Part shown: positions 2,241-46,121 of the stretch, piece by piece
How the letters are laid out: each line of letters starts with the position of its first letter
Numbering within the stretch: position 1 is the stretch's first letter
Assembly (NCBI GenBank): GCA_043742705.1
Contig: JAYTXY010000056.1
Coordinates: 1 to 55,137, forward strand
Reading direction: 5' to 3'
DNA length: 55,137 bases
Source of the DNA: Bacteroidota bacterium
Lineage (GTDB): Bacteria; Bacteroidota; Bacteroidia; AKYH767-A; 2013-40CM-41-45
Program-made: the position numbers and the translations under genes
The notes under the pieces: generated by a model
The model's database searches: none
Told to the model about the DNA's origin: nothing
What the model saw: only the letters and a program-made list of their open reading frames with translations

Positions 2241-4109
2241 ATGACTGCATTAAAATCAAAATCTTTTTTAACAACCATCTTTCTTGCCCTGCTGATTGCC
2301 TTTTGCTTTTTCAAAAACCCGCGCCAGGAGAACAATAAATATTTTACCAACGATCTTGAATGGGATGTGTTCTCTTACTACATGTACCTTCCCTATACTT
2401 TTGTTTATCACGATATGGGAATGAAGGATCCGAAAATCGTGGAGAACATTTTCAAAAAATATAATTTTCCGGGAACCTATTACCAGGCGTATAAACTGGA
2501 AAATGGAAACTATACTCCAAATTATACGATGGGTTTTGCATTGCTCTGGTCGCCTTTCTTTTTCATCGGGCATACCTGGGCGAAAGCCGGCGGCTATGAT
2601 GTAGACGGCTGGTCCTTTCCCTATCAATTCAGCATTGCTGTCGGAGTATTGTTTTACATTCTCATCGGCTTATTCTTTCTTCGAAAAATATTGCTTCATT
2701 TTTTTTCGGAGAATCTTACTTCACTGGTTTTACTGTTGACCGTTCTCGGTACAAATTATTTGCACGAGGCATTCAACGATTACATGCAGCCACATGCGCA
2801 GATTTTTACGGGCTATGCCGTACTGATCTATTATACCATTCGCTGGCACCAGGAGCAGAAAAAAAAGTACATGATGATTGCAGGACTCGTCATGGGTTTT
2901 ATGATTCTCGCAAGACCCAGTGAAATTCTGTGCCTCTTCATTCCGCTTTTGTGGAATGTATACGATAAAGAATCATTTCAAAAAAAGATTCAGCTGGTTC
3001 GTGCAAATCTTTTTCAGTGTCTCATCCTGATCGGATTTGCTTTCATTCCGTTCATTCCCCAGATCCTGTATTGGAAACACGTTACAGGTGCCTGGTTGTT
3101 TTACAGTTATCAACGTTACGAAGGATTTGATTTTCTGGCTCCGCATATTTTTAATTGTCTCTTCAGCTTTAAGAAAAGCTTATTCATTTATACACCGATC
3201 ATCATATTTCCAATCATCGGAATTTTCCTGATGAAGAAATACAATAAGATGATCTTTCTTCCTTTCCTCCTTTACTTTCTCTCCAATTTTTATTTGCTGA
3301 CAAGCTGGGCTGCCTGGTGGAATGGCGGAAGTTATGGCATGCGGTATTTTGTAGAATCGTATCCGGTGATGGCAATTTCATTCGGATATGTGCTCACCGA
3401 TATTTGGAAAAGGAAATGGTTGCTGAAGTCAATTACTTCTGTGCTGTTGGTTTTATTTACAGCCTTGAATCTTTTTCAGACCTGGCAGTACATGCACTGG
3501 ATCATTCCGGAAGACCGGATGAACTGGGCGTATTACAAACAAATCTTTTTGAAAACAAAAGTGACGGATGATGACCGTAAACTTATGGAAGTACAACGTT
3601 CGTATGACTACACGGAAAGTTTTACTAATCCTGAAGAATATAATCGCCATACAGTGGTTTACCTGAGCTTCGACAATGTCAACACCTCAGATTACGATGA
3701 ATCAAAAAAGGACACCGCTCTTTTTCTTTCCGCTCCTTCTTCTTTTAAAATGACGGAGAACGATGAGTGGGGACCTAATTGCAAGATTCAATACGATCAC
3801 TTGGTTCCTTCCGATAAAGATCATGCATGGCTGAAACTCAGCGCCTGGTATTATTCCGATGCTGACATCAAAGACAATGAGACAAACTTTGTCATCAACA
3901 TGCCTCACCATAAGTATAACCTGAAGTACCGCGCATTTAATTTTTCTCAGTTCCCGTGGAAAAAAGGCGAGTGGAATAAAGTGGAGTTTAATTATATGAC
4001 TCCATTCCCGTATTCCGAAAAAGATCATTTTGAAATTTACATCTGGCATCGCGGCAAACAAACCATGTGGTTAGATAACATGCATGTAGAGGCTTACCTC
4101 AAAAAATAA
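2241..4109 (+). CDS. Large polytopic membrane protein, GT-C-like (ArnT/PMT-like) putative glycosyltransferase with a C-terminal soluble jelly-roll/CBM-like domain
   Basis: 622 aa. About 12 hydrophobic segments are followed by a soluble tail of roughly 190 aa. It is a paralog of 7728..9548: shared DVFSYYMYLPYTFVYHD / DVHWYYAYLPAQFIYHD and WWNGGSYGMRYFVESYP / WWYGGTYGQRSMIDSFP. The functional family is inferred from architecture only. Confidence 0.65.
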   Translation: MTALKSKSFLTTIFLALLIAFCFFKNPRQENNKYFTNDLEWDVFSYYMYLPYTFVYHDMGMKDPKIVENIFKKYNFPGTYYQAYKLENGNYTPNYTMGFALLWSPFFFIGHTWAKAGGYDVDGWSFPYQFSIAVGVLFYILIGLFFLRKILLHFFSENLTSLVLLLTVLGTNYLHEAFNDYMQPHAQIFTGYAVLIYYTIRWHQEQKKKYMMIAGLVMGFMILARPSEILCLFIPLLWNVYDKESFQKKIQLVRANLFQCLILIGFAFIPFIPQILYWKHVTGAWLFYSYQRYEGFDFLAPHIFNCLFSFKKSLFIYTPIIIFPIIGIFLMKKYNKMIFLPFLLYFLSNFYLLTSWAAWWNGGSYGMRYFVESYPVMAISFGYVLTDIWKRKWLLKSITSVLLVLFTALNLFQTWQYMHWIIPEDRMNWAYYKQIFLKTKVTDDDRKLMEVQRSYDYTESFTNPEEYNRHTVVYLSFDNVNTSDYDESKKDTALFLSAPSSFKMTENDEWGPNCKIQYDHLVPSDKDHAWLKLSAWYYSDADIKDNETNFVINMPHHKYNLKYRAFNFSQFPWKKGEWNKVEFNYMTPFPYSEKDHFEIYIWHRGKQTMWLDNMHVEAYLKK

Positions 4110-33478: not shown

Positions 33479-36400
33479 TCAATTTACCCGCAAAGCTTCG
33501 TTCTTTTTAATGGATATAGTTGTTCGTAAATCTTCGTCAACCTCAATGTTGACAGCATCTTTGTCATTTAATGAATCAACAAATTCAAGCGAAGTCGCTA
33601 AAATTTCCGCGCAAATATATACTTTATTATTTAATATGGAGGTCTTGATGGCTGCGTGATTCAGGACTTTCAGGTCGATTTTATCGGTCACTTCAAAACC
33701 CTTGTCTTTTCGTAAATTCTGAATCCTGTTAACGAATTCCCGGGCTATTCCTTCTTCCCGAAGTTGCTCATCAATTTTGATGTCGAGCGCAACAGTCAAC
33801 TTGCCTTCCGTGGCGACTTCCCATCCCGGAATGTCTTCGGAGAGGATTTCAACGTCTTCTTCTGAAAGAGATACAATTGTACCGTTCACCTGCAGATCAA
33901 ATTTTTTCTCCGCTTCTAACTGAAGAATATCTTCCTGTGAAAAATTCTGAACAGCTGCGGCAACATCTTTCATCAGTGCTCCGACTTTTTTTCCAAGTAC
34001 TTTAAAATTAGGTTTGATTTTCTTGACAAGAATTCCGGAAGTGTCTGTGATGTATTCAACTTGCTTCACATTTACTTCTGCAAGAATTAATTCTTTTATC
34101 GAATCTACTTTCGACTGAAACGATTTATCCAAAACAGGAACAAGGATTTTATTCAAAGGCTGACGAACACGGATATTTACTTTCTTTCGTAAAGACAATA
34201 CCATCGAAGAAATTTTCTGCGCCAGTTCCATTCGTTCTTCAAGCAACTTATCAATCAGTTGATCGTTGCTCACAGGAAAATCTCCAAGATGAACAGAAGA
34301 AACATTTTTCCGCTTTGCGATGTTGTTCAGATCCGTAAACAAACGATCGGAATAAAACGGTGCCACCGGTGACATCAGCAATGCAATGCTTTCAAGACAT
34401 GTGTACAACGTTTGGTAAGCAGCAGTTTTATCTTCTGAATAATCTCCTTTCCAGAATCTTCTCCGGCACAAACGAACGTACCAATTACTCAGGTGCTCCG
34501 TTACAAAATCCTGGATGGCGCGTGTAGCTTTTGTGGGTTCGTAATCTGCATAGCATTCATCCACGAATTTGATGAGTGAATTCAACTCTGATAAAATCCA
34601 TCGATCAATTTCAGGTCGTGCTGAAACAGGAATTTCCTTTTCAGCATACGCGAATCCGTCAATGTTTGCATACAATGCAAAAAAGGAATACGTGTTGTAA
34701 AGTGTTCCGAAAAATTTTCGCTGCACTTCACCGATTCCATCCACATTAAATTTCAGGTTGTCCCACGGCTGCGCATTGCTGATCAGGTACCATCGTGTTG
34801 CATCAGGTCCGTATTTCTCAATCGTCTCAAACGGATCAACAGCATTGCCTAAACGCTTCGACATTTTATTTCCGTTCTTGTCGAGTACCAAACCGTTACT
34901 CACCACATTTTTGAAAGCAACGGAATCGAACAACATCACAGCAATCGTATGAAGTGTGAAAAACCATCCGCGTGTCTGGTCAACTCCTTCAGCAATAAAA
35001 TCTGCGGGGAAAGCCCCTCCCTGACCCTCCCCAAAAGGGAGGGAACGAGGTTCTCCCATATAATGGTATTGTGCATACGGCATGGCACCGCTGTCGAACC
35101 ACACATCGATGAGATCCGCCTCACGGATCATTTTCTTTCCTGAATCAGAAACCAAAATAATGTTGTCGACATAAGGACGATGTAAATCAAAATCCGGTTT
35201 TGATGCATCCACATGTTCAAGATGAGATTTGTCCATGAACCCTGCAGCGATGGATTTCTCAATTTCCTTTTTCAATTCTTCAATGGAGCCAATGCATTTT
35301 TCTTCCTTCAAATCTTCGGTTCTCCAGATCGGAAGCGGAATTCCCCAAAAGCGTGAACGGGATAAATTCCAGTCGACCAAATTTTCAAGCCAGTTTCCAA
35401 AACGACCAGTTCCCGTGGACTCAGGTTTCCAGTTAATGGTTTTATTAAGTTCAATAAGTCTGTCCTTCGCTGCCGTTGTTTTGATGAACCATGAATCCAG
35501 CGGATAATAAAGAACAGGTTTATCAGTGCGCCAGCAATGCGGATAGCTGTGTTCGTACTTCTCAACTTTGAATGCTTTGTTTTCTTTTTTCAGTTTGATG
35601 GAAATGCGTTCATCCACCGATAAATATTTTTCTCCGCCTTGTTTCTTTCGTTCTGCTTCCTTTTCTTCTTCTGTTAAGTATTGTTCTTTCACATACTCAT
35701 TCGCAAAGTCTGTTACTTCAGAAACGAAGCGTCCTTGCTTGTCAACGAGCGTGAGTGAGCCTAAACCATTTTGTTTTGCTGTGCGAAAATCGTCTGCGCC
35801 AAAACTCGGAGCGATGTGAACGATTCCTGTTCCGTCTTCTGTCGTTACAAAATCTCCAAGCACCACTTTGAATGCTTCGCCATCGTTCGGCTTCACATAC
35901 GGAAGTAATTGATCGTAACGAATTCCTTCGAGTTCTTTTCCTTTAAATTCTGCAATGACTCTATATGGTATCAGCTTGTCGCCTTCTTTGTAATCTTCCA
36001 GTTTCAATTCAACATTCTTCTCTGAAAAATATTTTCCAAAAAGATCATTCGCAAGAATAACCGTGATCGGTTTGTGCGTATATTGATTAAACGTTTTTAC
36101 AGCGACATACGGAATGTCTTTCCCAACAGCAAGTGCAGTGTTCGAAGGTAGCGTCCATGGTGTGGTCGTCCAGGCAAGAAAAAATAAATCTCCTTCCAGC
36201 CCAACCAACTGAGAACTGTTGACTACAGATCGCACCTGAAATTGCGCAACAACGGTTGTATCTCTCACCATTTTGTACGTTCCCGGCTGATTCAGTTCAT
36301 GCGAACTCAATCCTGTTCCTGCTGCAGGAGAATATGGTTGAATGGTATATCCTTCGTACAACAATCCTTTCTTGTAAAGTTCCTTCAGCAAATACCAGCA

Positions 36401-36877
36401 GGTTTCGATGTAGTTGTTTTCAAACGTCACATACGGATGTTCGAGATCAACCCAATAACCCATCTTACGTGTGAGATCATCCCACACGTTTTTATATTTC
36501 ATGACTTCCTTGCGGCAAGCCTTGTTATAATCTTCAATCGAAATTTTTTTTCCGATGTCTTCCTTACGAATGCCCAATGTTTTCTCCACACTCAGTTCAA
36601 TCGGTAACCCGTGTGTATCCCATCCGCCTTTGCGTTTCACCTGGAAACCTTTCAATGTTTTGTAACGGCAGAAAATATCTTTGATCGCACGCGCCATCAC
36701 GTGATGAATGCCGGGCAAACCATTCGCTGATGGCGGACCTTCATAAAACGTAAAAGCAGGTTTACCTTCGCGGGTCGTCACACTTTGCTCAAAAGTTCTT
36801 TCCTTGTCCCATCGCAGCAATTCTTCTTTGCCGACAGAACCAAGATCAAGCTGTTTATATTCTCTGTACTTACTCAT
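33479..36877 (-). CDS. ileS: Isoleucine--tRNA ligase (long, type 2)
   Basis: 1132 aa. Contains PSANGLPGIHHVMARA (HIGH region), the editing CP1 domain, KMSKRLGN (KMSKS) and FPADFIAEGVDQTRGWF. Confidence 0.95.
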   Translation of the reverse strand: MSKYREYKQLDLGSVGKEELLRWDKERTFEQSVTTREGKPAFTFYEGPPSANGLPGIHHVMARAIKDIFCRYKTLKGFQVKRKGGWDTHGLPIELSVEKTLGIRKEDIGKKISIEDYNKACRKEVMKYKNVWDDLTRKMGYWVDLEHPYVTFENNYIETCWYLLKELYKKGLLYEGYTIQPYSPAAGTGLSSHELNQPGTYKMVRDTTVVAQFQVRSVVNSSQLVGLEGDLFFLAWTTTPWTLPSNTALAVGKDIPYVAVKTFNQYTHKPITVILANDLFGKYFSEKNVELKLEDYKEGDKLIPYRVIAEFKGKELEGIRYDQLLPYVKPNDGEAFKVVLGDFVTTEDGTGIVHIAPSFGADDFRTAKQNGLGSLTLVDKQGRFVSEVTDFANEYVKEQYLTEEEKEAERKKQGGEKYLSVDERISIKLKKENKAFKVEKYEHSYPHCWRTDKPVLYYPLDSWFIKTTAAKDRLIELNKTINWKPESTGTGRFGNWLENLVDWNLSRSRFWGIPLPIWRTEDLKEEKCIGSIEELKKEIEKSIAAGFMDKSHLEHVDASKPDFDLHRPYVDNIILVSDSGKKMIREADLIDVWFDSGAMPYAQYHYMGEPRSLPFGEGQGGAFPADFIAEGVDQTRGWFFTLHTIAVMLFDSVAFKNVVSNGLVLDKNGNKMSKRLGNAVDPFETIEKYGPDATRWYLISNAQPWDNLKFNVDGIGEVQRKFFGTLYNTYSFFALYANIDGFAYAEKEIPVSARPEIDRWILSELNSLIKFVDECYADYEPTKATRAIQDFVTEHLSNWYVRLCRRRFWKGDYSEDKTAAYQTLYTCLESIALLMSPVAPFYSDRLFTDLNNIAKRKNVSSVHLGDFPVSNDQLIDKLLEERMELAQKISSMVLSLRKKVNIRVRQPLNKILVPVLDKSFQSKVDSIKELILAEVNVKQVEYITDTSGILVKKIKPNFKVLGKKVGALMKDVAAAVQNFSQEDILQLEAEKKFDLQVNGTIVSLSEEDVEILSEDIPGWEVATEGKLTVALDIKIDEQLREEGIAREFVNRIQNLRKDKGFEVTDKIDLKVLNHAAIKTSILNNKVYICAEILATSLEFVDSLNDKDAVNIEVDEDLRTTISIKKNEALRVN
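35012..35059 (-). repeat. In-frame palindromic insert-like segment in ileS encoding MGEPRSLPFGEGQGGA
   Basis: The coding strand reads tccctcccttttggggagggtcagggaggggct (stem ccctccc/gggaggg). The 33-nt core at 35012-35044 is very similar to 54619-54650 in aspS. Confidence 0.6.
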
Positions 36878-37109: not shown

Positions 37110-39053
37110 TCAATGAACCTGTCGGTTTTTGATCATGGATTGCATGGTCTGAAGAGCTGCCTTGGTAAAGGTGATCATACTGTCGCTCCGTTGAGGATCA
37201 CCCATCATATCACAGCAACGCTCATCATTCCAAAGACGGAAAAGAGTTGTCTTTTCTTTTTGCTGAATGCAAAAACAATCTTTTGAAATACAACCCAGTT
37301 CATCGTCATAGGTGAACGGAAGAAATTTTCGTTCTTCCTTAAAAAGATTTACTCCGAAAGAGTTATTCGTATATGACAAGTTCAACAAACTCATCACCGT
37401 TGGAAATACATCAATCTGTCCGCCGAGCTTTTCAATGATTTGTGCTTTCAGAATTTTCGGAGCATACATAATAAGCGGAACGTGGTGATACGACAAATAA
37501 TGATCTGTCTGATCGTCAAGTATCGCTCCGTGATCTCCGGTAAAAACAAAAATCGTGCTGTCGAACCAATTTTGCGAAGAACATTCTTTCAGAAAATTTC
37601 CAATCGACCAGTCTGCATATTCTGTAGCTTGTTTTTTTTTGTCTGATGAGAGCGGATGAAAAGGAATGTCTGTCGGAATTTTGTAAGGACCGTGATCGCT
37701 CCCTGTCATGAATGCTGCAAAGAATGGTTTTCCATTTTGATGAAGCGTGTTGAATCGTGTCACCGCATCTTCAAACATCACATGATCGGGAACACCGAGT
37801 GTGCTCAATACTTTGTCCTGCGGATAATTCCGTTCGCTCACAATATTTTGAAAACCATTCGGCAAAAGAAATCCTGCCATGTTATCAAACTGATCATCGT
37901 GCGTTGTAAAAAAAACAGTCTGGTAATTTTCTTTTGAAACTATTCTTGCTATTCCTTCATACGGTTGCTGGTTCGCAAGATCTTTCATGTGATGAACCAT
38001 CGGAAGAGAAGGCATGCCGAACAAGGTTGAATAAATTCCATTGAAGGTGTGAATACCGTCTGAATAAACAGAGTTGAACAACACTGCATTTTTTGAAATG
38101 CTGTCAAGGCATGGAGTTAAATGATCTTTGTTTCCAAAGATTCCCATCTTCCTTGATGTCATGCTTTCCATGATAACAAGAACAACATTTAATTTTCGCG
38201 GCTCATTCGATGAAACAACTTTCCTTGCAACCGGAGAATACAACTTTTCATTCGGAGAAATTCCCAACGCGTTCTGAATCGTTTGAATGGCAAGTGCTTC
38301 ATCCATGTAATGAATGTCATTGCTCTTTCTGTTCTTCTGATCCAGCCAGCTTTGCATGAATGTGTAAACAGGATTCAGTCCGAGTTGATTCGTCAGGTTG
38401 TGCTGGCTTACAAAGGCTGTTCCCCAGCGAATCGGAGATTTGATAGCAATTCGCCCTCGAATTCCTAAAAACATAAATCCACAAGCCAGTAAATAAAAAA
38501 CTATTGCAGATGTTATTGATTTTTTTTCTTCCTGCTGTTCCAATGTTTTGTTCCTGATTTCTTTCATCGTTCCATAAAGAAGGATCAGCAACACAACATA
38601 TGCGATGAGAAAAGGGTAATTCTGAATGTCTTCGAAAATAATTTTAATCATCATTCCCGGAGTATTTGTCCATTGCAAGGATGCAACGGTCAATCTGGTT
38701 TGCTGATGATTGAACCATGGAATGTCAGCACAAACAATAAAAATTCCGACTGCATATATTAAGAAGATAAAAGCAAAAATAATTTTCTCTAAAAAAATAA
38801 TTCGTCTTTTAAAAAAAGAGAAAAGGAAAAACAGCACCAATGGAATTGCAAGAAAATAACCACTGATGACAGCATCGAAACGGATTCCTAAAACAAAAGC
38901 CTGAAGAACATACCTTGAGGGAATTGTTTTGATTTCGTTGAAGTGAAAAATAAAAAGCAATATCCGCAGCAATGAAAACACAATCATTCCACTTCCGTAA
39001 ATCAATACAATGAATTGCATTGGTCGTGGAAGTTTTTTGAAAAAAGATTTCAT
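37110..39053 (-). CDS. LTA synthase/sulfatase-family (alkaline phosphatase superfamily) membrane phosphotransferase
   Basis: Five N-terminal TM segments are followed by VVLVIMESMTS and FTGDHG motifs. ATG at 39053 is preferred over TTG at 39074, which overlaps the ridA-like stop. Confidence 0.8.
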   Translation of the reverse strand: MKSFFKKLPRPMQFIVLIYGSGMIVFSLLRILLFIFHFNEIKTIPSRYVLQAFVLGIRFDAVISGYFLAIPLVLFFLFSFFKRRIIFLEKIIFAFIFLIYAVGIFIVCADIPWFNHQQTRLTVASLQWTNTPGMMIKIIFEDIQNYPFLIAYVVLLILLYGTMKEIRNKTLEQQEEKKSITSAIVFYLLACGFMFLGIRGRIAIKSPIRWGTAFVSQHNLTNQLGLNPVYTFMQSWLDQKNRKSNDIHYMDEALAIQTIQNALGISPNEKLYSPVARKVVSSNEPRKLNVVLVIMESMTSRKMGIFGNKDHLTPCLDSISKNAVLFNSVYSDGIHTFNGIYSTLFGMPSLPMVHHMKDLANQQPYEGIARIVSKENYQTVFFTTHDDQFDNMAGFLLPNGFQNIVSERNYPQDKVLSTLGVPDHVMFEDAVTRFNTLHQNGKPFFAAFMTGSDHGPYKIPTDIPFHPLSSDKKKQATEYADWSIGNFLKECSSQNWFDSTIFVFTGDHGAILDDQTDHYLSYHHVPLIMYAPKILKAQIIEKLGGQIDVFPTVMSLLNLSYTNNSFGVNLFKEERKFLPFTYDDELGCISKDCFCIQQKEKTTLFRLWNDERCCDMMGDPQRSDSMITFTKAALQTMQSMIKNRQVH

Positions 39054-39060
39054 GCAGAAA

Positions 39061-39483
39061 TTAAACAGTGGCAATTACCTTCAACTCAATGGCAATCGGA
39101 GTTGGCAAACAATTAATTTCAAGCGTAGTTCTGCACGGAGGATTGTCTTTGAAATATTCAGCCCACAATTTATTATAAATAGGAAAATCATTTTTCATGT
39201 TCGTGAGATAAACTGTTACATCTACAATTTTATCCCACGATGTTCCGGCATCTTCAAGAATCAGTTTTACATTTTTAAAAACAGAATGACATTGCGTGGC
39301 GATATCATAGCTGATGATTTTTCCATTTGCATCCTGTTCAACTCCGGGAATTTTTTTTGTTCCGCGTTCGCGCGGACCAACTCCTGAAAGAAAAAGTAAG
39401 TTGCCGACTTTTCTTGCATGCGGATACAAGCCAACCGGCTCGGGAGCCTTACCGGAATTGATGGAAGAGTTTTCTGCTGTCAT
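39061..39483 (-). CDS. RidA/YjgF/L-PSP family protein
   Basis: 140 aa. Matches the typical RidA pattern: GLYPHARKVGNLLFLSGVGPR...VTVYLTNMKDF...PCRTTLE. Confidence 0.85.
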   Translation of the reverse strand: MTAENSSINSGKAPEPVGLYPHARKVGNLLFLSGVGPRERGTKKIPGVEQDANGKIISYDIATQCHSVFKNVKLILEDAGTSWDKIVDVTVYLTNMKNDFPIYNKLWAEYFKDNPPCRTTLEINCLPTPIAIELKVIATV

Positions 39484-39576
39484 TGTTTTAAAAAATCAGG
39501 AATTCATTTAATGAATTACGAAGATCAAGGTTTATTCGGGAATTGCGAAAAAATATTTCACTATAAAAATCAGCTT

Positions 39577-39646
39577 GTCATGCAGGAGGCATCCATTTAT
39601 GAATTGGTTCCACAACTGACTTAAAAATAGATTCCTCCTGAATGAC
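39577..39646. repeat. gtcatKcaggag-family palindromic element, copy 2
   Basis: gtcatgcaggagg (39577-39589) pairs with cctcctgaatgac (39634-39646), 12/13. The 3' end aaaatagattcctcctgaatgac is nearly identical to aaaaagattcctcctgaatgac at 31821-31841. Confidence 0.75.
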
Positions 39647-39696
39647 ATCTTGAGCCATTCCGTTCTTGAATTCACAAACCGTTTATTAAGAAAAGC

Positions 39697-40491
39697 CTAC
39701 TGAATATTTTCAGCAATTTTTTTTGAAAGCTCTTCTCCGGAAATTGCTCCGTTGTATTTCCATTTCTGCACTCCGCTTTTAAACAGGATGAAAACAGGAA
39801 CTCCCCGGATCTGGTATTTCGTTGCAACTTCTTTGCTGTTGTCAACATCGATTCGGATTACAACTGCTTTGCCTTTGAAATCCTCCGCAATTTTTTCCAC
39901 CACAGGAATCATCTTTCTGCAGGGCGCACACCATTTCGTGTGAAAGTCGACCAACACAGGTTGTTTCGTTTTCAGCATTTGATTGAATTCCGCCAACGTG
40001 AGTTGTTTAATATTTTCATCTTTTACGCTTTCGGGTTTTGTCACAGCAAATCCTTTTCCTGACCATGCAGTCAATCCACCTTCGAGGTTATATACTTTTT
40101 TAAAACCGTTCTTCTTCATGATCTCCGCTGCCTGTGCACTTCGTCCGCCCATTTTACAATACACATAAACCGGCTTGTCTTTCGGAATCAGATTCACCTT
40201 GCTTGCAAAATCATCATCATAAAAATCAATTGTGCTGGCTCCGCCAATATAACCTTGTTCAACTTCTTCGGAGGTGCGAACATCCAGCAATACACCTATT
40301 CCAGATTCAACAAGTTGTTTGAATTTTTCCGGAGTTGCGTTTTCAACAATCTGAGATTGGTTTTGTCCACTCGCAAAAGTGAAAATAAACAGTGCGATGA
40401 TTAAAGTAACAAGTTGTTTAATTGTTTTCACGGTTCTTGATTTATCTTTCAGTCTTGTCTCTTGATTCTTGCCTCTTGGTTCTACAAACAA
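39697..40491 (-). CDS. Exported rhodanese-thioredoxin fusion protein
   Basis: Rhodanese active-site loop YCKMGGRS, then a thioredoxin domain with WCAPC. The track start is TTG at 40491. An alternative GTG at 40430 gives a clean signal peptide (KTIKQLVTLIIALFIFTFASG). Confidence 0.8.
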   Translation of the reverse strand: MFVEPRGKNQETRLKDKSRTVKTIKQLVTLIIALFIFTFASGQNQSQIVENATPEKFKQLVESGIGVLLDVRTSEEVEQGYIGGASTIDFYDDDFASKVNLIPKDKPVYVYCKMGGRSAQAAEIMKKNGFKKVYNLEGGLTAWSGKGFAVTKPESVKDENIKQLTLAEFNQMLKTKQPVLVDFHTKWCAPCRKMIPVVEKIAEDFKGKAVVIRIDVDNSKEVATKYQIRGVPVFILFKSGVQKWKYNGAISGEELSKKIAENIQ

Positions 40492-41490
40492 TCATAGCCA
40501 TCCATTCGCCTTGTACCAGTCGATCGTTTCTTTCAGTCCGCGATCAAGATCGTATGCTGCACGAAAACCTATCTCGTCTTTTAACGGTGTTGTATCAACA
40601 CTCCAGTTGCGCGCTTCAAATTCATTCACACGTTCGCGGTTCAATGTTGCAATGTTTCCAAAAATGGAAGCAATGGTTTCCGTAACGAATGCAATCGGAC
40701 GTACAACAGCAGTAGGAACAGTAACGGAGATCGTTTTTTTACCTAGATGTTTTTTTGCAATGATGTTGAATTCTTTTGAATCATAAATGGATCCGTCCGA
40801 AACGAAATAATCTTTTTGTTTCAGTGGTGATTCCATTGCAAGAAAAATTGCGCTAACCAAATCTTTCACGAACACAAAACTCAACACTTGTTTTCCGAAA
40901 CCGATGTATGCCTCCACGTGTTTGTTGAGCATTTTCAATAAAATAAAAATGTCTTTGTCGCGCGGACCATACACTGCTGTAGGACGAATTATGATGTAAG
41001 GAAATCCATTCAGCGAACGCAGATAATTTTCCGATTCCAGTTTGCTCCTTCCATAGGAGGTCACCGGTTTTTGTTCATCCGTTTGCTTTATCGGATTTTG
41101 TGTTGTTCCGGGACCATGCGCAGCAAGACTACTCATGTAAACAAATTTTTCAGGAACGTTATTACTACTGATCAATCCATCCACAAAATTTTTCGTGTAC
41201 TGCGAGTTGACTGTAAAAAAATCCTGAATTGCTTTTGCTTTGGTGATTCCTGCATTATGAATGACGTAATCAAACTTGCCGTGCTTGCTGCTGAAATCAG
41301 AAATCTGATCTTTGAGTTTTTGAGAATCTGTGAAATCCAGTTCGAAGAATTTTATCCGCTCATCAGCGAGGTATTTCCTGCTACTGCTTTTACGAACACC
41401 GGCATATACCTCATACCCGCGTTTCAATGCTTCTTCAATCAGAGAACTTCCGATGAATCCGCTGGCGCCTGTGATGAGGATTTTTTTCAT
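40492..41490 (-). CDS. NAD-dependent epimerase/dehydratase-family SDR (candidate 3-keto reductase of the adjacent lipid operon)
   Basis: 332 aa. Has the ILITGASGFIGS Rossmann motif and an extended-SDR layout (YGRSK catalytic YxxxK). Confidence 0.8.
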   Translation of the reverse strand: MKKILITGASGFIGSSLIEEALKRGYEVYAGVRKSSSRKYLADERIKFFELDFTDSQKLKDQISDFSSKHGKFDYVIHNAGITKAKAIQDFFTVNSQYTKNFVDGLISSNNVPEKFVYMSSLAAHGPGTTQNPIKQTDEQKPVTSYGRSKLESENYLRSLNGFPYIIIRPTAVYGPRDKDIFILLKMLNKHVEAYIGFGKQVLSFVFVKDLVSAIFLAMESPLKQKDYFVSDGSIYDSKEFNIIAKKHLGKKTISVTVPTAVVRPIAFVTETIASIFGNIATLNRERVNEFEARNWSVDTTPLKDEIGFRAAYDLDRGLKETIDWYKANGWL

Positions 41491-41523
41491 GAGACGTTTT
41501 ACCTGTCTTCTAAAAATACATAA

Positions 41524-41622
41524 TCCCGCGTTATGCGGGACTACAAGTTAAATCGTGTGTTGGCAGGTGTTTCACCTACCACTTTTTTTTCACCTACCAG
41601 CGTTGCTTTCGGGTGAAACACC
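41524..41622. promoter_or_regulatory. Structured intercistronic spacer between the GNAT-like and SDR genes
   Basis: Hairpin tcccgc gttat gcggga lies at 41524-41540. An 11-bp inverted repeat ggtgtttcacc (41566-41576) / ggtgaaacacc (41612-41622) encloses a direct repeat tcacctacca x2 and a T8 run. Confidence 0.45.
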
Positions 41623-41635
41623 CGTCAGCACTTAA

Positions 41636-42772
41636 TCATTTCAACGGCAATTCGTAAACACGATACTTCTTGTAAACTTTTCCGCCAATGTGAAGCAATG
41701 CTTTGTTCATCATGTGGTTGTTTTCAAGAATCCATGATGCTTCTCCGTAGTTGATGCCTTTTCTGGCTGCAGCTTCTAAATTCATCGCATAAAAACAGGC
41801 ATCAATTCCGGCTTTACGATATCCTTCGATGACACCAAGTGTAATGATACGAACACTCTTTACTTTTTTCTGATTCATCAGAATCTTAAAAAGTCCGGTT
41901 GGAAATAATCGCCCCCGTTTAATCTTGATTGTGACTTCATTCAGATTGGGAATCGTCAATCCAAAACCAATTGCTTTGCCGTTGTGTTCGGCAACGTAAG
42001 CGAAATCGGTATCTACAATCGCTTTCATGTCGGACGCTGCAAAACGAAATTCGTCTTTTGTCATGGGAACAAAACCCCAGTTCTTTTCCCAGGCGGCATT
42101 GTAGACGTCATGGAGTTTATCCACTTCCTCTTTGAATTTTTTCATGTTGAACTTGCGGATGATGATACCGTCTCTCTTCAACCGATTTTCAAGAGAAGGA
42201 CGCAACGCAATCACACGCTGGTTCATATTTTCTTTCGTTCCGATTTTGTACGCGAGCATGTCCATCTTTTTCCGGAAACCGTAACGTTCCATGAAATCGT
42301 TGTAATACTTTTTGTTGTACGTCATCAGGATGACGGGAGGAACATCGTAACTGTCGATTAGCATTCCGCAGGTATCGTTCGTGGAAAAATTAACAGGACC
42401 AATAATTCCTGATAATCCTTTTTGCTTGCACCAATCCTTTACGGTATTGAGCAATGCTTCAGCTACAGCGTAATCTTCGATCACATCAAAGAATCCGAAA
42501 AAGCCATCGTTGTTGCCGGTGAATTTTTTGTACCCTCCGTTATCAACAGCAGCAACACGACCAACGATTTTTCCATCCCTGTATGCAAGAAAAAGATCTA
42601 CTTCCGCATGCTGGAAGAATGGATTTTTCTTCCGGTTAAAAAGTTTCTCCTGGGATATGTAAAGTTCCGGAACGTAATTGGAATCACCTGAATACAGATC
42701 GTGAGGAAAGTCGATGAACTTCTTTACCTCACCACCCGAAGATGCAATTTTCTTAACGGTGATTTGTGCCAT
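41636..42772 (-). CDS. GNAT-fold acyltransferase, about 380 aa (candidate N-acyltransferase)
   Basis: The C-terminal GNAT core reads LGVIEGYRKAGIDACFY...ASWILENNHMMN. The start overlaps the upstream alpha-oxoamine synthase stop by 20 nt. Confidence 0.65.
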   Translation of the reverse strand: MAQITVKKIASSGGEVKKFIDFPHDLYSGDSNYVPELYISQEKLFNRKKNPFFQHAEVDLFLAYRDGKIVGRVAAVDNGGYKKFTGNNDGFFGFFDVIEDYAVAEALLNTVKDWCKQKGLSGIIGPVNFSTNDTCGMLIDSYDVPPVILMTYNKKYYNDFMERYGFRKKMDMLAYKIGTKENMNQRVIALRPSLENRLKRDGIIIRKFNMKKFKEEVDKLHDVYNAAWEKNWGFVPMTKDEFRFAASDMKAIVDTDFAYVAEHNGKAIGFGLTIPNLNEVTIKIKRGRLFPTGLFKILMNQKKVKSVRIITLGVIEGYRKAGIDACFYAMNLEAAARKGINYGEASWILENNHMMNKALLHIGGKVYKKYRVYELPLK

Positions 42773-43982
42773 TGGCGATCATTTCCTGTAAAGCGAAAAC
42801 TCCCAGTTCTTTAGCCACCTTATGTATTTTATCAATCGCCTGTTCAATTTGTGCGATAGAGTGTGTAGCCATTAATGACATACGGATCAGTGATGAATCG
42901 CTTTTTACTGCAGGCGAAACAACAGGATTCACAAACACACCCTCTTCAAACAAACGGTTGGTAAATTTAAACGTGGTCATGTCATCACGAATGTAAATCG
43001 GGATGATTGGAGTCTCGGTTTTGCCAATGTCAAAGCCAAGGTTTTTTAAAGTCTCAGTGGCGTAACGCGTGTTTGCCCAAAGATGATCGAGACGATCCGG
43101 CTCACTTTGAATGATTTCAAGAGCAGCCAACGCAGCAGCTGCAGCTGACGGAGGAATGCTCGCGCTGAAAATCATCGAGCGTGCATTATGTTTGAGGTAA
43201 TTGATAATGTCTTTGTTACTTGCAACGAATCCGCCGAGTGATGCCAACGATTTGCTGAATGTGCTCATGATGAGATCAACCTCATTCGTCAATCCGAAAT
43301 GAGCAGCTGTCCCTTCACCATGTTTTCCGAGAACACCCAATGCATGCGCATCATCTACCATCAAAGCAGCACCATATTTATTGGCAAGCTTAACGATGGA
43401 AGGTAAATCAGCAATGTCACCTTCCATACTGAAGATTCCATCCACCACAATCATTCTTATCCTGTCATCATCAATTGAACGAAGTTGATTTTCAAGTTCG
43501 TTCATATCGTTGTGAGCAAATTTCAGAACTCTTGAAAAAGACAAACGGCTTCCTTCAATAATAGAAGCGTGGTCGAGTTCATCCAATAATAAAACTCCAT
43601 GACGACCGGTAAGCGTAGCTACAACACCTAAATTGGTTTGATAACCTGTGCTGAAAACCAACGCAGCTTCTTTGCCGACAAAGTCAGCCAGCCTTTCTTC
43701 CAACTCGATATGGAGCTTAGAGGTCCCGTTCAGGAAACGTGAGCCGGAGCAGCTGCTTCCATAACGTTCGAGAGCAATGCTCGCAGCTTCTTTCACCTTT
43801 GGGTGATTGGTTAAGCCCATGTAGCTGTTTGATCCGAACATCAGAACCCGCTTTCCCCCTATTGTAACTTCCGTATCGTGATTTTCCTCAATGGGCCTGA
43901 AGTAAGGATAAATACCTGCCTTCTTTAACTCGGCAGGTATTGTAAACTTCTTCATTTTCTGGTGAAGAGTAGTTGAAACCAT
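42753..43982 (-). CDS. PLP-dependent alpha-oxoamine synthase, serine palmitoyltransferase / cysteate-acyl transferase-like
   Basis: 409 aa. Contains YPYFRPIE, SNSYMGLTNHPKV, GSSCSGSRFLNGT (SPT-like rather than BioF/KBL-like), DDAHALG and the STFSKSLASLGG PLP-lysine motif. Confidence 0.8.
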   Translation of the reverse strand: MVSTTLHQKMKKFTIPAELKKAGIYPYFRPIEENHDTEVTIGGKRVLMFGSNSYMGLTNHPKVKEAASIALERYGSSCSGSRFLNGTSKLHIELEERLADFVGKEAALVFSTGYQTNLGVVATLTGRHGVLLLDELDHASIIEGSRLSFSRVLKFAHNDMNELENQLRSIDDDRIRMIVVDGIFSMEGDIADLPSIVKLANKYGAALMVDDAHALGVLGKHGEGTAAHFGLTNEVDLIMSTFSKSLASLGGFVASNKDIINYLKHNARSMIFSASIPPSAAAAALAALEIIQSEPDRLDHLWANTRYATETLKNLGFDIGKTETPIIPIYIRDDMTTFKFTNRLFEEGVFVNPVVSPAVKSDSSLIRMSLMATHSIAQIEQAIDKIHKVAKELGVFALQEMIANGTNHR

Positions 43983-44630
43983 TCTGTCTAATTTATGTTT
44001 TTAACCAGTTATTATCTAAATTCAATTAACCCTACTGCAAAGACAATCAAATCCTAAAACCTGACAAATAAATAACCCGCTGCCTTGTAAGGGCAAATTT
44101 TGGGTGCTCAAAATAAAGGATAAAAAAAGAAATGACCAAAGCAAATATCATGTGTGTTGATAACCAGTCGATTAGTTTGTAATCCATTATCATTTTAAGT
44201 CAGATAAACCTATCTGACTATTTAAGGGGATGAATATACAACGATTTCTTTGAACTCAAAATGTTCTTTAAGGCAACTGCTGCCTTTTCAACCCTTTCGT
44301 CAAAAATTCACGCAAAGAAATTCAATTTACAATGAATGTAAGATGATGGAAATCATCGAGCCACTTATAATGTAAAACCCGTTCAGGAAAGCTTTCTATC
44401 AATAAAGTATTTCCGGACTTTCGCCAAAGAGTTTCATGCTTTCGAGACGATGGCGGGAAACGAGAAAATTGTTTTTATTTCATAATATCTCAAAAAAGGA
44501 AACGTTATTTTGCAGCCGAAGTATAAGAACCTTAATTTTGAAGTAAAAACTGAAAGAATTACGATCAAATTAAGTTGACAAGACTCCGTTAAGATTGTAT
44601 CTTATAGAGAATTAGAAGATTAGCAAGGAC

Positions 44631-46121
44631 ATGAAAACTGCAAAAAGAAAACATACGTTTCTGAACACCATTTGTCTCGGTGTATGTTTACTCTTTTCTT
44701 TTATTTTGCCAGGCTCTTTTGCTTCAGGAAAAACTCCTGCTGATACTACTGCAATCATTAATTTTTATAATCCGGCAGGAAGTTTTTTATTCCAGCCTGA
44801 TGCTTCCATCTCTGTGAACGAAAGAGAAATGAGAGCCGGACTTCTTTACGATCTGGAGAATAAAAAAATAGTGTGGCAAAAAGAGATGAGCATGCCTTAC
44901 CCGATTGCATCACTTACAAAAATGATGGTTGCCTTGATTACCGTTGAAGATATTCACGCCGGAAAAGTCAACTGGACAGACAATGTTCACTGGACACGCG
45001 AAATCAGGATGGGAAGAGGAAAAAAGAAACGCACCGTTACTGAAAACGTAAATTATTCCCTACTCGATATTTTTAAAGCAGCCATGATTGCTTCCAATAA
45101 CGAAGCTGCAGAACAAATGGCGCGATATGTTGGCGGAGATGTTCAGTCGTTTGTTGATCGCATGAATACACGTGCAAGAGAAATAAACATGAACAGTACG
45201 TACTATGGAAATCCTACAGGACTCCCTGCCAGCGGAAAACTGTTCGACAATTCTGCTTCACCTACTGACTTGCTCATCCTCACTCTTGAAATGCTGAAGT
45301 ACGATGAGATTCTTCAGGTAACCGGAATGGGTTATGCAGACATCAACAACGGACGCAGCACCAGTGTGATCAGAAATCATAATCACCTTACTATTGATTA
45401 CAAAGGTGAAGTTGACGGAATGAAAACCGGTTACACGAAAAGAGCCGGGTTTTGTCTCGCTGCCACTTCCAACAAATGCGATCATCGGTTGATCAGCATT
45501 GTCCTTGGCTCCCGTTCTCCGAATCTCCGTAACGAAGTTGTAAAGGACATGATCAATGATTACTACAGTTCCATTGGTCTTGACAAATTAGGTCCGTATT
45601 GTGAGGCTCCTTCTTCCGTAAAATCTGTTTCGAGCATAACTCACGTTGTGAAGCACGGTGAAACGCTTGCTTCTGTTGCTTATAAATACAATTGCTCCGA
45701 AACAGATATTAAATCCTGGAACAAACTTCGTAAAGGAAGAATTGCTCCCGGACAAAAACTGACCATCGCGTCTTCTGCCAACGAGCAAGTTGCTGTTGTG
45801 AAGAGTAGTGAAGAAGATACGGAAGGAAGTGAGCAATTGGCATCCTCCGAAGAAAATCAATCAATCGATGCAACTGAAGAAACTGTTGACGTTCCAAAAG
45901 CTGTGACAACAGTATCGAAAGCAAAAGCAAAGTCTACGGTTAAGTCAGACAAATCAACTTCGAAGTACATTATTTACGTGGTGCAACCCGGCGACACGCT
46001 TTTCAGCATTGCCAAGCGTTATGACCTTGCTAACATCAACCAATTGAAAGCGGTGAACAAAATTTCCAAGGGCCATGTTTTGAAAGCCGGAGCGAAGATC
46101 AAGGTTCCTGTTAACAGCTGA
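44631..46121 (+). CDS. D-alanyl-D-alanine carboxypeptidase (S11, PBP5/6-like) with two C-terminal LysM domains
   Basis: Contains ASLTKMM (SxxK), ASNN (SxN) and KTGYT. Two LysM repeats are present (HVVKHGETLASVAYKY..., YVVQPGDTLFSIAKRY...). Confidence 0.88.
   Translation: MKTAKRKHTFLNTICLGVCLLFSFILPGSFASGKTPADTTAIINFYNPAGSFLFQPDASISVNEREMRAGLLYDLENKKIVWQKEMSMPYPIASLTKMMVALITVEDIHAGKVNWTDNVHWTREIRMGRGKKKRTVTENVNYSLLDIFKAAMIASNNEAAEQMARYVGGDVQSFVDRMNTRAREINMNSTYYGNPTGLPASGKLFDNSASPTDLLILTLEMLKYDEILQVTGMGYADINNGRSTSVIRNHNHLTIDYKGEVDGMKTGYTKRAGFCLAATSNKCDHRLISIVLGSRSPNLRNEVVKDMINDYYSSIGLDKLGPYCEAPSSVKSVSSITHVVKHGETLASVAYKYNCSETDIKSWNKLRKGRIAPGQKLTIASSANEQVAVVKSSEEDTEGSEQLASSEENQSIDATEETVDVPKAVTTVSKAKAKSTVKSDKSTSKYIIYVVQPGDTLFSIAKRYDLANINQLKAVNKISKGHVLKAGAKIKVPVNS

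Follow-up and report, generated by a model that had tools for sequence, protein, structure and literature searches.

Three neighbouring genes in an uncultured Bacteroidota genome raise the question of which lipid their products build. They lie on the minus strand of the window, that is, of the whole 55,137-nucleotide stretch analysed here, which belongs to a metagenome-assembled genome that is 89% complete. A previous reading made from the sequence only had recognised a synthase, a GNAT and an extended-SDR gene in a co-oriented arrangement, all of which was confirmed, and had likened them to ceramide as well as to capnine genes on account of their shared three-activity logic. The homology of each protein goes beyond this logic and upholds the ceramide reading: very probably, the three genes represent the bacterial de novo ceramide pathway (Spt-bCerS-CerR), which is a known pathway. 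Each product is homologous to its pathway component and the gene order is strongly conserved; which substrates and chain lengths are used, and whether acylation or reduction comes first, is what we infer. In Caulobacter crescentus, ceramide is reportedly made by Spt, bCerS (CCNA_01212, the same gene as CC_1154) and CerR (CCNA_01222, the same as CC_1164), a pathway that Olea-Ozuna in 2021 and Stankeviciute in 2022 are said to have described. The window operon shares its three enzyme families with this system and with its counterpart cluster in E. coli BL21, ECD_02850-02854, arranged as yghO/acyl-AMP ligase/epimerase/ACP/spt.

The first gene, spt (positions 42753..43982, minus strand), encodes an alpha-oxoamine synthase of 409 aa with an Aminotran_1_2 domain (Pfam domain search, E 4e-56), and the two signatures that had drawn attention to it are both found in the translation, YPYFRPI as part of GIYPYFRPI, and GSRFLNGT. 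NF047600 SerpalmtaseCFB, the NCBIfam equivalog for Bacteroidota Spt, was matched with 682.7 bits where 640 are required, while the scores for KBL, BioF and other Spt-type models fell below each family's own cut-off. The top PDB matches were the structures of Sphingobacterium multivorum SPT (8guh/3a2b, 512 bits), with weaker scores for BioF/KBL-like proteins (303 bits), KBL (273 bits), CFAT 28eh (246 bits), and SulA 7u7h (234 bits). The S. multivorum enzyme (3A2B, 8GUH) is thus the best solved relative of the window synthase, although the host lineages differ. The proposed phylogeny with Spt, CFAT, BioF, and KBL enzymes groups the synthase with Spt, in agreement with the PDB scores; it branches among the Bacteroidota Spt on short branches, with SulA, Kbl, and BioF on long separate ones. 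Identity reached 58-59% with Spt of three other Sphingobacterium species, all encoded in an spt-GNAT-SDR operon, and 37% with Spt of E. coli BL21; the alphaproteobacterial Spt model gave 308.7 bits against a cut-off of 670. The window enzyme belongs to a Bacteroidota subgroup, unlike the Spt of the Caulobacter/E. coli BL21 system. These relationships class the synthase, by sequence, as a genuine serine palmitoyltransferase and not as a cysteate acyltransferase.

The same data bear on the possibility that the operon makes capnine and sulfonolipids, with the synthase acting as CapB/SulA, the SDR as dehydrocapnine reductase and the GNAT protein as capnine N-acyltransferase. The capnine route follows identical three-step chemistry, CapB/CFAT/SulA have the fold and the Claisen-type condensation of the window synthase, and the sulfonolipid potential of the lineage is clear, SulA being present in 25 of 26 relatives. 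Yet the synthase scored 234-246 bits to the solved SulA and CFAT structures against 512 to Spt, and it falls outside the SulA/CFAT clade in the tree. Its PLP lysine lies within TFSKS and is followed 30 positions on by an Ala (TFSKS...MIFSASIPP), at the site where Spt has Ala and SulA needs Lys281 (PMC9304779), the equivalent of Lys at CFAT-280. A separate, genuine SulA is encoded elsewhere in the genome (L003, contig C45), with Lys at the diagnostic position and 581 bits to PDB 7u7h, and the window SDR is an extended SDR as opposed to the classical short-chain reductase CapC/KCR. A capnine or sulfonolipid identity of the operon, which the sequence-only reading had kept as an option, is hardly credible and appears already largely refuted. 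Of the suggestion that the synthase stands nearer to Spt or to cysteate-acyl transferase than to BioF/KBL, the first half was borne out and the second was not. A search of the genome, itself only 89% complete, for cysteate synthase (TIGR03844) gave no match at E <= 1e-5.

The second gene, encoding a putative bCerS-type N-acyltransferase of 378 aa with a tandem GNAT architecture (41636..42772, minus strand), is translationally coupled to spt. As had been stated for a GNAT protein of about 380 aa, its ATG precedes the spt stop by an overlap of exactly 20 nt (42753-42772, ORF positions), which recurs in same-genus genomes. Pfam provided a weak GNAT match alone (PF00583, E 3e-8). The protein aligned to E. 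coli BL21 YghO with 34% identity over 378/380 residues (E 3e-76), and the hhalign comparison of both returned a probability of 100%. Its link to Caulobacter CC_1154 runs via YghO, since YghO and the epimerase of the E. coli cluster were described as the counterparts of CC_1154 and CC_1164 (PMC9386255). In a tree of the GNAT family, the window protein falls inside the spt-linked clade and YghO branches nearby. Its AF2 model (pLDDT 91) has a tandem-GNAT fold and matched tandem-GNAT proteins best, and among its matches were acetyltransferases and, more weakly, N-myristoyltransferases; a look-up in the ESM Atlas returned generic GNAT clusters only. Homology places it in the YghO/CC_1154 (bCerS) family. 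Of 301 Bacteroidota genomes sampled, 289 contained homologues, and this assignment would give a putative function to a widespread gene usually annotated as 'hypothetical' or 'GNAT family'. Separately, the Pfam family FemAB_like (PF04339), weakly matched by two relatives and also found in the Caulobacter control genome, was considered for this protein and rejected because E. coli YghO itself has zero Pfam matches, PF04339 included.

The third gene (40492..41490, minus strand) encodes a CerR-type extended SDR of 332 aa, with an Epimerase domain (PF01370, E 1e-36), TGASGFIGS as its N-terminal GxxGxxG motif and YGRSK as its YxxxK motif. This protein and the epimerase from the spt cluster of E. coli BL21 are reciprocal best hits. 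Their identity is only 24-26%, as is commonly seen between extended SDRs that are unrelated, so that there is moderate support for the window protein being a CerR-type reductase orthologous to the ceramide-cluster epimerase. The model of the BT_0972-type 3-ketosphinganine reductase (NF049977) gave it 42.7 bits, far short of the cut-off at 400, and no protein of the genome exceeded this cut-off, the best match scoring 125 bits.

The cellular location of the SDR is a point in itself. Caulobacter CerR was reported as periplasmic (PMC11087976), whereas no signal sequence is visible at the N-terminus of the window protein, which opens directly with the Rossmann motif, as the E. coli BL21 epimerase likewise does. 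This lack of any sign of export distinguishes the window from the Caulobacter/E. coli BL21 system and was counted against the three-gene ceramide reading.

Gene order lends the ceramide reading its second line of evidence. Of 80 named Bacteroidota loci, about 65 carry the spt-GNAT-SDR triad, among them loci of Sphingobacterium, Pedobacter, Mucilaginibacter, Dyadobacter, Chitinophagaceae, and Saprospiraceae; spt and the GNAT gene adjoin each other in most of the 80 and, among 20 loci belonging to other classes in the phylum, in 12. The named loci that were fetched come from environmental lineages, and in most of them the ceramide genes form a tight operon. For sphingolipid-producing Bacteroidota, the three had been stated not to lie near one another (PMC11334938). 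Otherwise, the locus is an expected instance of an already described pathway and of modest interest. B. fragilis Spt, CerS (BF9343_4218), and CerR (BF9343_4240) come from the same phylum and have the same proposed chemistry, but the ceramide genes are dispersed in Bacteroides, BF9343_4218 and BF9343_4240 being spaced by 22 genes, and are gathered in one operon in the window. Compared with the Caulobacter/E. coli BL21 system, the window likewise differs in having its three genes contiguous, with spt and bcerS translationally coupled.

In the proposed pathway, Spt would join L-serine and a long-chain acyl thioester into 3-ketodihydrosphingosine, whose amine would then be N-acylated by the tandem-GNAT protein of the bCerS/YghO family. 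The CerR-type extended SDR would finally use NAD(P)H to reduce the 3-keto group and yield dihydroceramide. Acylation before reduction is favoured because this order was reported in Caulobacter and B. fragilis, and because no BT_0972-type 3-ketosphinganine reductase in the genome reaches the curated cut-off. When the CerS and CerR homologues are knocked out in B. fragilis, 3-KDS and keto-dihydroceramide build up, so that acylation precedes reduction there. In contrast to the Caulobacter/E. coli BL21 system, the cluster has no dedicated gene for an acyl carrier protein or an acyl-ACP synthetase, and acyl-CoA or housekeeping acyl-ACP is therefore the likely acyl donor. As the sequence-only reading had cautioned for the exact lipid, the final head group is not readable from the locus.

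The nature of the amino acid substrate leads to another possibility, in which the main product of these ceramide-type enzymes would be an alanine-derived 1-deoxyceramide or a different N-acyl keto-amine lipid. The amino-acid preference of Spt is not fixed by sequence alone, and the same enzyme set yields 1-deoxyceramides when alanine replaces L-serine (PMC11334938, supplement); the same study suggested abundant Desulfobacterota and/or Bacteroidota as the 1-deoxyceramide producers of the Black Sea. Against these points, the Spt active-site signature and the 58-59% identity to Sphingobacterium Spt favour serine as the main substrate, and a deoxyceramide-type main product seems very improbable.

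A tentative extension of the ceramide reading concerns the sulfonolipids for which the genus is also equipped. A single bCerS/CerR pair may serve two lipid classes in this genus by N-acylating and reducing both the 3-ketosphinganine of Spt and the 3-ketocapnine of SulA, which we regard as unlikely. In its favour stand the occurrence of SulA in nearly all relatives, the single YghO-family member detected at E <= 0.001, the operon's own, in the same-genus genome G301 (100% complete), and the fact that the sulfonolipid literature examined names no N-acyltransferase for that pathway. Whatever the sharing of enzymes, this freshwater/peat lineage is a likely maker of both sphingolipids and sulfonolipids.

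Downstream of the operon are three further minus-strand genes whose pathway membership is conjectural. The first encodes a rhodanese-thioredoxin fusion of 264 aa (39697..40491), with a Rhodanese domain at residues 53-145 and a Thioredoxin domain at residues 161-260 after an N-terminal hydrophobic segment. The second encodes a RidA/Rid-family protein (39061..39483; PF01042, E 8e-25) and the third a membrane protein of 654 aa from the LtaS/sulfatase superfamily (37110..39074; PF00884, E 5e-39). LtaS-type enzymes move phosphoglycerol or phosphoethanolamine groups, and the three products could act with the operon as a larger unit, for example in head-group transfer to ceramide or in the removal of reactive enamines that the PLP enzyme sets free. 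All point the same way with little space between them: the SDR stop abuts the next ORF, and the RidA and LtaS-like genes overlap by 14 nt. The order of the operon and its neighbours is the same in the same-genus genome G303, which is also the only genome where the rhodanese-thioredoxin gene adjoins the operon. The link of the RidA and LtaS-like genes to the operon is likewise confined to the genus. None of the three lies beside the operon in the 80 named loci, in the 20 other-class loci or in the four genomes of the same family or order whose flanks were fetched. The gene for IleRS comes next in the same string, so that the close spacing seems ordinary. The scores of the LtaS-like protein fall far short of all curated cut-offs (LtaS 65 vs 970 bits; phosphoglycerol transferase I 66 vs 572). 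A larger functional unit is improbable on this evidence. The earlier hints of sulfur chemistry, drawn from the rhodanese-thioredoxin protein, and of head-group addition, drawn from the LtaS-like gene, are left unsupported because these neighbours stay linked only within the genus, with no conservation of gene order outside it.

A last observation concerns the 145-nt spacer between the GNAT and SDR genes (41491..41635, minus strand). The SDR gene had been said to follow the GNAT gene, and it does lie downstream, but the two do not abut directly. In the spacer, a consensus scan located a hairpin at 41519-41545 that resembles a terminator and has a T run behind it; an Rfam scan of positions 39000-45000 gave zero matches. 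The hairpin parts the SDR gene from spt and the GNAT gene, and it was counted against the three-gene ceramide reading. Among the 80 named loci, the gap between the GNAT and SDR genes is only 3-20 nt in most other taxa, and the spacer hairpin is kept in two same-genus genomes.

On the minus strand, the alpha-oxoamine synthase gene spt (42753-43982; 409 aa) is followed by a gene for a GNAT-type protein (41636-42772; 378 aa), whose ATG lies 20 nt ahead of the synthase stop, and by an extended SDR gene (40492-41490; 332 aa). The same string continues with genes for a rhodanese-thioredoxin fusion (39697-40491), the Rid-family protein RidA (39061-39483) and a membrane protein of 654 aa that carries a sulfatase/LtaS-type domain (37110-39074), and with ileS (33479-36877). 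The synthase, GNAT and SDR genes described in the sequence-only reading are real, with ORFs in place and domains borne out by Pfam and NCBIfam, as are those of the three products that follow, and the signature motifs it quoted were found in the synthase translation. Upstream, 648 nt without long ORFs (43983-44630) separate spt from a divergent PBP5-LysM gene; an Rfam scan of this region was empty at E <= 1, and the promoter-like sites in it are all weak.

Of the two pathways first proposed, ceramide-like or sulfonolipid, the synthase is consistent with the former. It passes NF047600, the NCBI equivalog model for Bacteroidota serine palmitoyltransferase (682.7 bits, cut-off 640), and falls below the NCBIfam cut-offs for KBL, BioF, ALAS and proteobacterial Spt. 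Among enzymes of solved structure, Sphingobacterium multivorum Spt scored highest (512 bits), followed by a BioF/KBL-like enzyme (303), KBL (273), Capnocytophaga CFAT (246) and Alistipes SulA (234). In SulA, Lys281, located 30 residues past the PLP lysine, is diagnostic, Spt having Ala there (Radka et al., PMC9304779), and a 2026 CFAT structure paper reported that Ala substitution of the analogous Lys280 reduced activity to <10%. The window synthase (TFSKS...MIFSASIPP) has Ala at this position. In a maximum-likelihood tree, the phylogeny called for earlier, it groups on short branches within Bacteroidota Spt, including three Sphingobacterium species, with the SulA pair, the Kbl pair and BioF each apart on long branches. 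Judged by its sequence, the enzyme is a serine palmitoyltransferase, and its reading as a cysteate acyltransferase is made very unlikely by the low SulA/CFAT scores, the diagnostic Ala and the tree.

The GNAT-type protein gave only a weak GNAT signal with Pfam, and NCBIfam and PDB sequence searches were without match. In E. coli BL21(DE3), ECD_02850 (yghO) and ECD_02852 were described as counterparts of the Caulobacter acyltransferase CC_1154 and epimerase/dehydrogenase CC_1164, respectively (Padilla-Gomez et al., PMC9386255), and the BL21 record shows a cluster of yghO, fatty acyl-AMP ligase, epimerase, ACP and spt genes. The window protein aligns with YghO over its full length (34% identity, E 3e-76; profile comparison probability 100%), and in the family tree it falls in an spt-linked Bacteroidia clade, near whose base YghO joins; two divergent clades, Flavobacterium with Chryseobacterium and Cryomorphaceae with Phnomibacter, stand apart. 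An AlphaFold model from an alignment of 25 sequences (pLDDT 91) displays two tandem GNAT domains and best matches tandem-GNAT proteins (a clavulanate-pathway protein, MshD, Eis), N-myristoyltransferases ranking lower. We know of no solved bCerS structure. By homology, the protein belongs to the bacterial ceramide synthase family, linked to CC_1154 through YghO.

The extended SDR, with N-terminal TGASGFIGS and YGRSK motifs, has the ceramide-cluster epimerase as its best match across the whole BL21 chromosome, and is itself that epimerase's best match in its own genome. Identity is just 24-26%, and assignment as a CerR-type reductase has moderate support. A BT_0972-type 3-ketosphinganine reductase was rejected (42.7 bits, cut-off 400), and no gene in the 89%-complete genome exceeded that model's cut-off. 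The 145-nt GNAT-SDR spacer (41491-41635) contains a terminator-like hairpin (41519-41545) kept in two same-genus genomes; the spacing is only 3-20 nt in most other taxa and 2.5 kb in the same-genus genome G303 (L123:6144-8704), enlarged by an opposite-strand gene whose Laminin_G_3 product bears a T9SS sorting tail.

The strongest independent evidence comes from gene order. Among 80 named genome loci retrieved through the GNAT family, about 65 had the three genes contiguous on one strand, a set including Sphingobacterium, Pedobacter, Mucilaginibacter, Nubsella, Dyadobacter, Runella, Pontibacter, Rufibacter, Chitinophagaceae, Saprospiraceae and Chryseolinea. For Cyclobacteriaceae and Reichenbachiella, the sampled loci read GNAT-spt-SDR. 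In other classes of the phylum, including the named lineages Ignavibacteria and Kapabacteria, spt adjoins the GNAT gene in 12 of 20 loci, often with a divergent SDR gene nearby; at the one confirmed Chlorobium locus it does not. PMC11334938 repeats the view that sphingolipid-producing Bacteroidota carry the three genes apart from one another; this may hold for Bacteroides, whereas the named loci sampled here mostly carry a tight operon, a small correction to the literature. A Cyclobacteriaceae genome shows the alternative order spt-SDR-GNAT (G215:C1:5772973-5776185; L108 is its 3' part, from 5773675), its GNAT protein being of the divergent Flavobacterium-type clade (27% identity) and its GNAT gene being followed by a classical SDR gene. 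A genome of the window's family (G314; 84% complete, 2% contamination) carries two Spt copies (G314:C165:6890-8092 and G314:C304:5470-6669), which share 67% and 66% identity with the window Spt, plus an orthologue of bCerS alongside a divergent paralogue.

From these directly observed homologies and linkage, we infer that Spt would condense serine with an acyl thioester to 3-ketodihydrosphingosine, bCerS would N-acylate it to keto-dihydroceramide, and CerR would reduce this with NAD(P)H to dihydroceramide. Acylation before reduction is proposed because of B. fragilis knock-out phenotypes and the Caulobacter model, and also fits a genome without a BT_0972-type reductase. Unlike proteobacterial ceramide clusters, the operon lacks a dedicated ACP and acyl-ACP synthetase. 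The locus very probably represents the known Spt-bCerS-CerR pathway, with an uncultured bacterium as its new host.

No conserved unit joins the downstream neighbours to the operon. In G303 the same series (rhodanese-thioredoxin, RidA, LtaS-like, ileS) comes after it in the same order, but not in four other operon carriers of the same family or order, and the neighbour genes are absent from the 80 named and the other-class loci. Since they are unlinked in the sampled loci beyond G303 and the LtaS-like protein lies far under every curated cut-off, the earlier hints at sulfur chemistry (rhodanese-thioredoxin) and head-group addition (LtaS-like) are unsupported and improbable.

Four alpha-oxoamine synthases are encoded in the window's genome, an 89%-complete MAG made up of 221 contigs: the window Spt, a clear Kbl, a divergent PRK07505-like protein and a genuine SulA (L003:1441-2682, plus strand; contig C45:7241-8479), which has the diagnostic Lys and matches SulA 7u7h at 581 bits and CFAT 28eh at 558. 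Its neighbours encode NIDO-like, DUF4878 and Peptidase_C92 proteins, with no GNAT or SDR gene beside it. Despite this SulA, the search for capA (cysteate synthase) suggested by the sequence-only reading found no TIGR03844 match at E <= 1e-5 in this incomplete genome. The divergent synthase (L004:1420-2805, minus strand, contig C123; 461-aa ORF, 27% identity to Spt) matched only NF005697 'hypothetical protein', under cut-off, and its gene adjoins a PKD/CHU_C type IX secretion cargo gene.

SulA was found in 25 of 26 relatives (74-92% identity), the exception being a 58%-complete genome, Spt in 10 and high-identity bCerS in 8; across the order, then, the potential for sulfonolipids is general and the ceramide operon patchy. 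The sulfonolipid literature searched names no N-acyltransferase for that pathway, and G301, a 100% complete same-genus genome, has just one YghO-family member at E <= 0.001. That one bCerS/CerR pair also processes the SulA product in this genus seems improbable. In Flavobacterium hankyongi, whose genome is without Spt, a divergent YghO-family tandem-GNAT gene (L107:1501-2619, plus strand), with 28% identity to that of the window, and a SulA-like gene (2678-3937, minus strand) are neighbours arranged tail to tail, an adjacency not seen in F. piscis or Chryseobacterium camelliae; the pairing could point to the N-acyltransferase of sulfonolipid synthesis.
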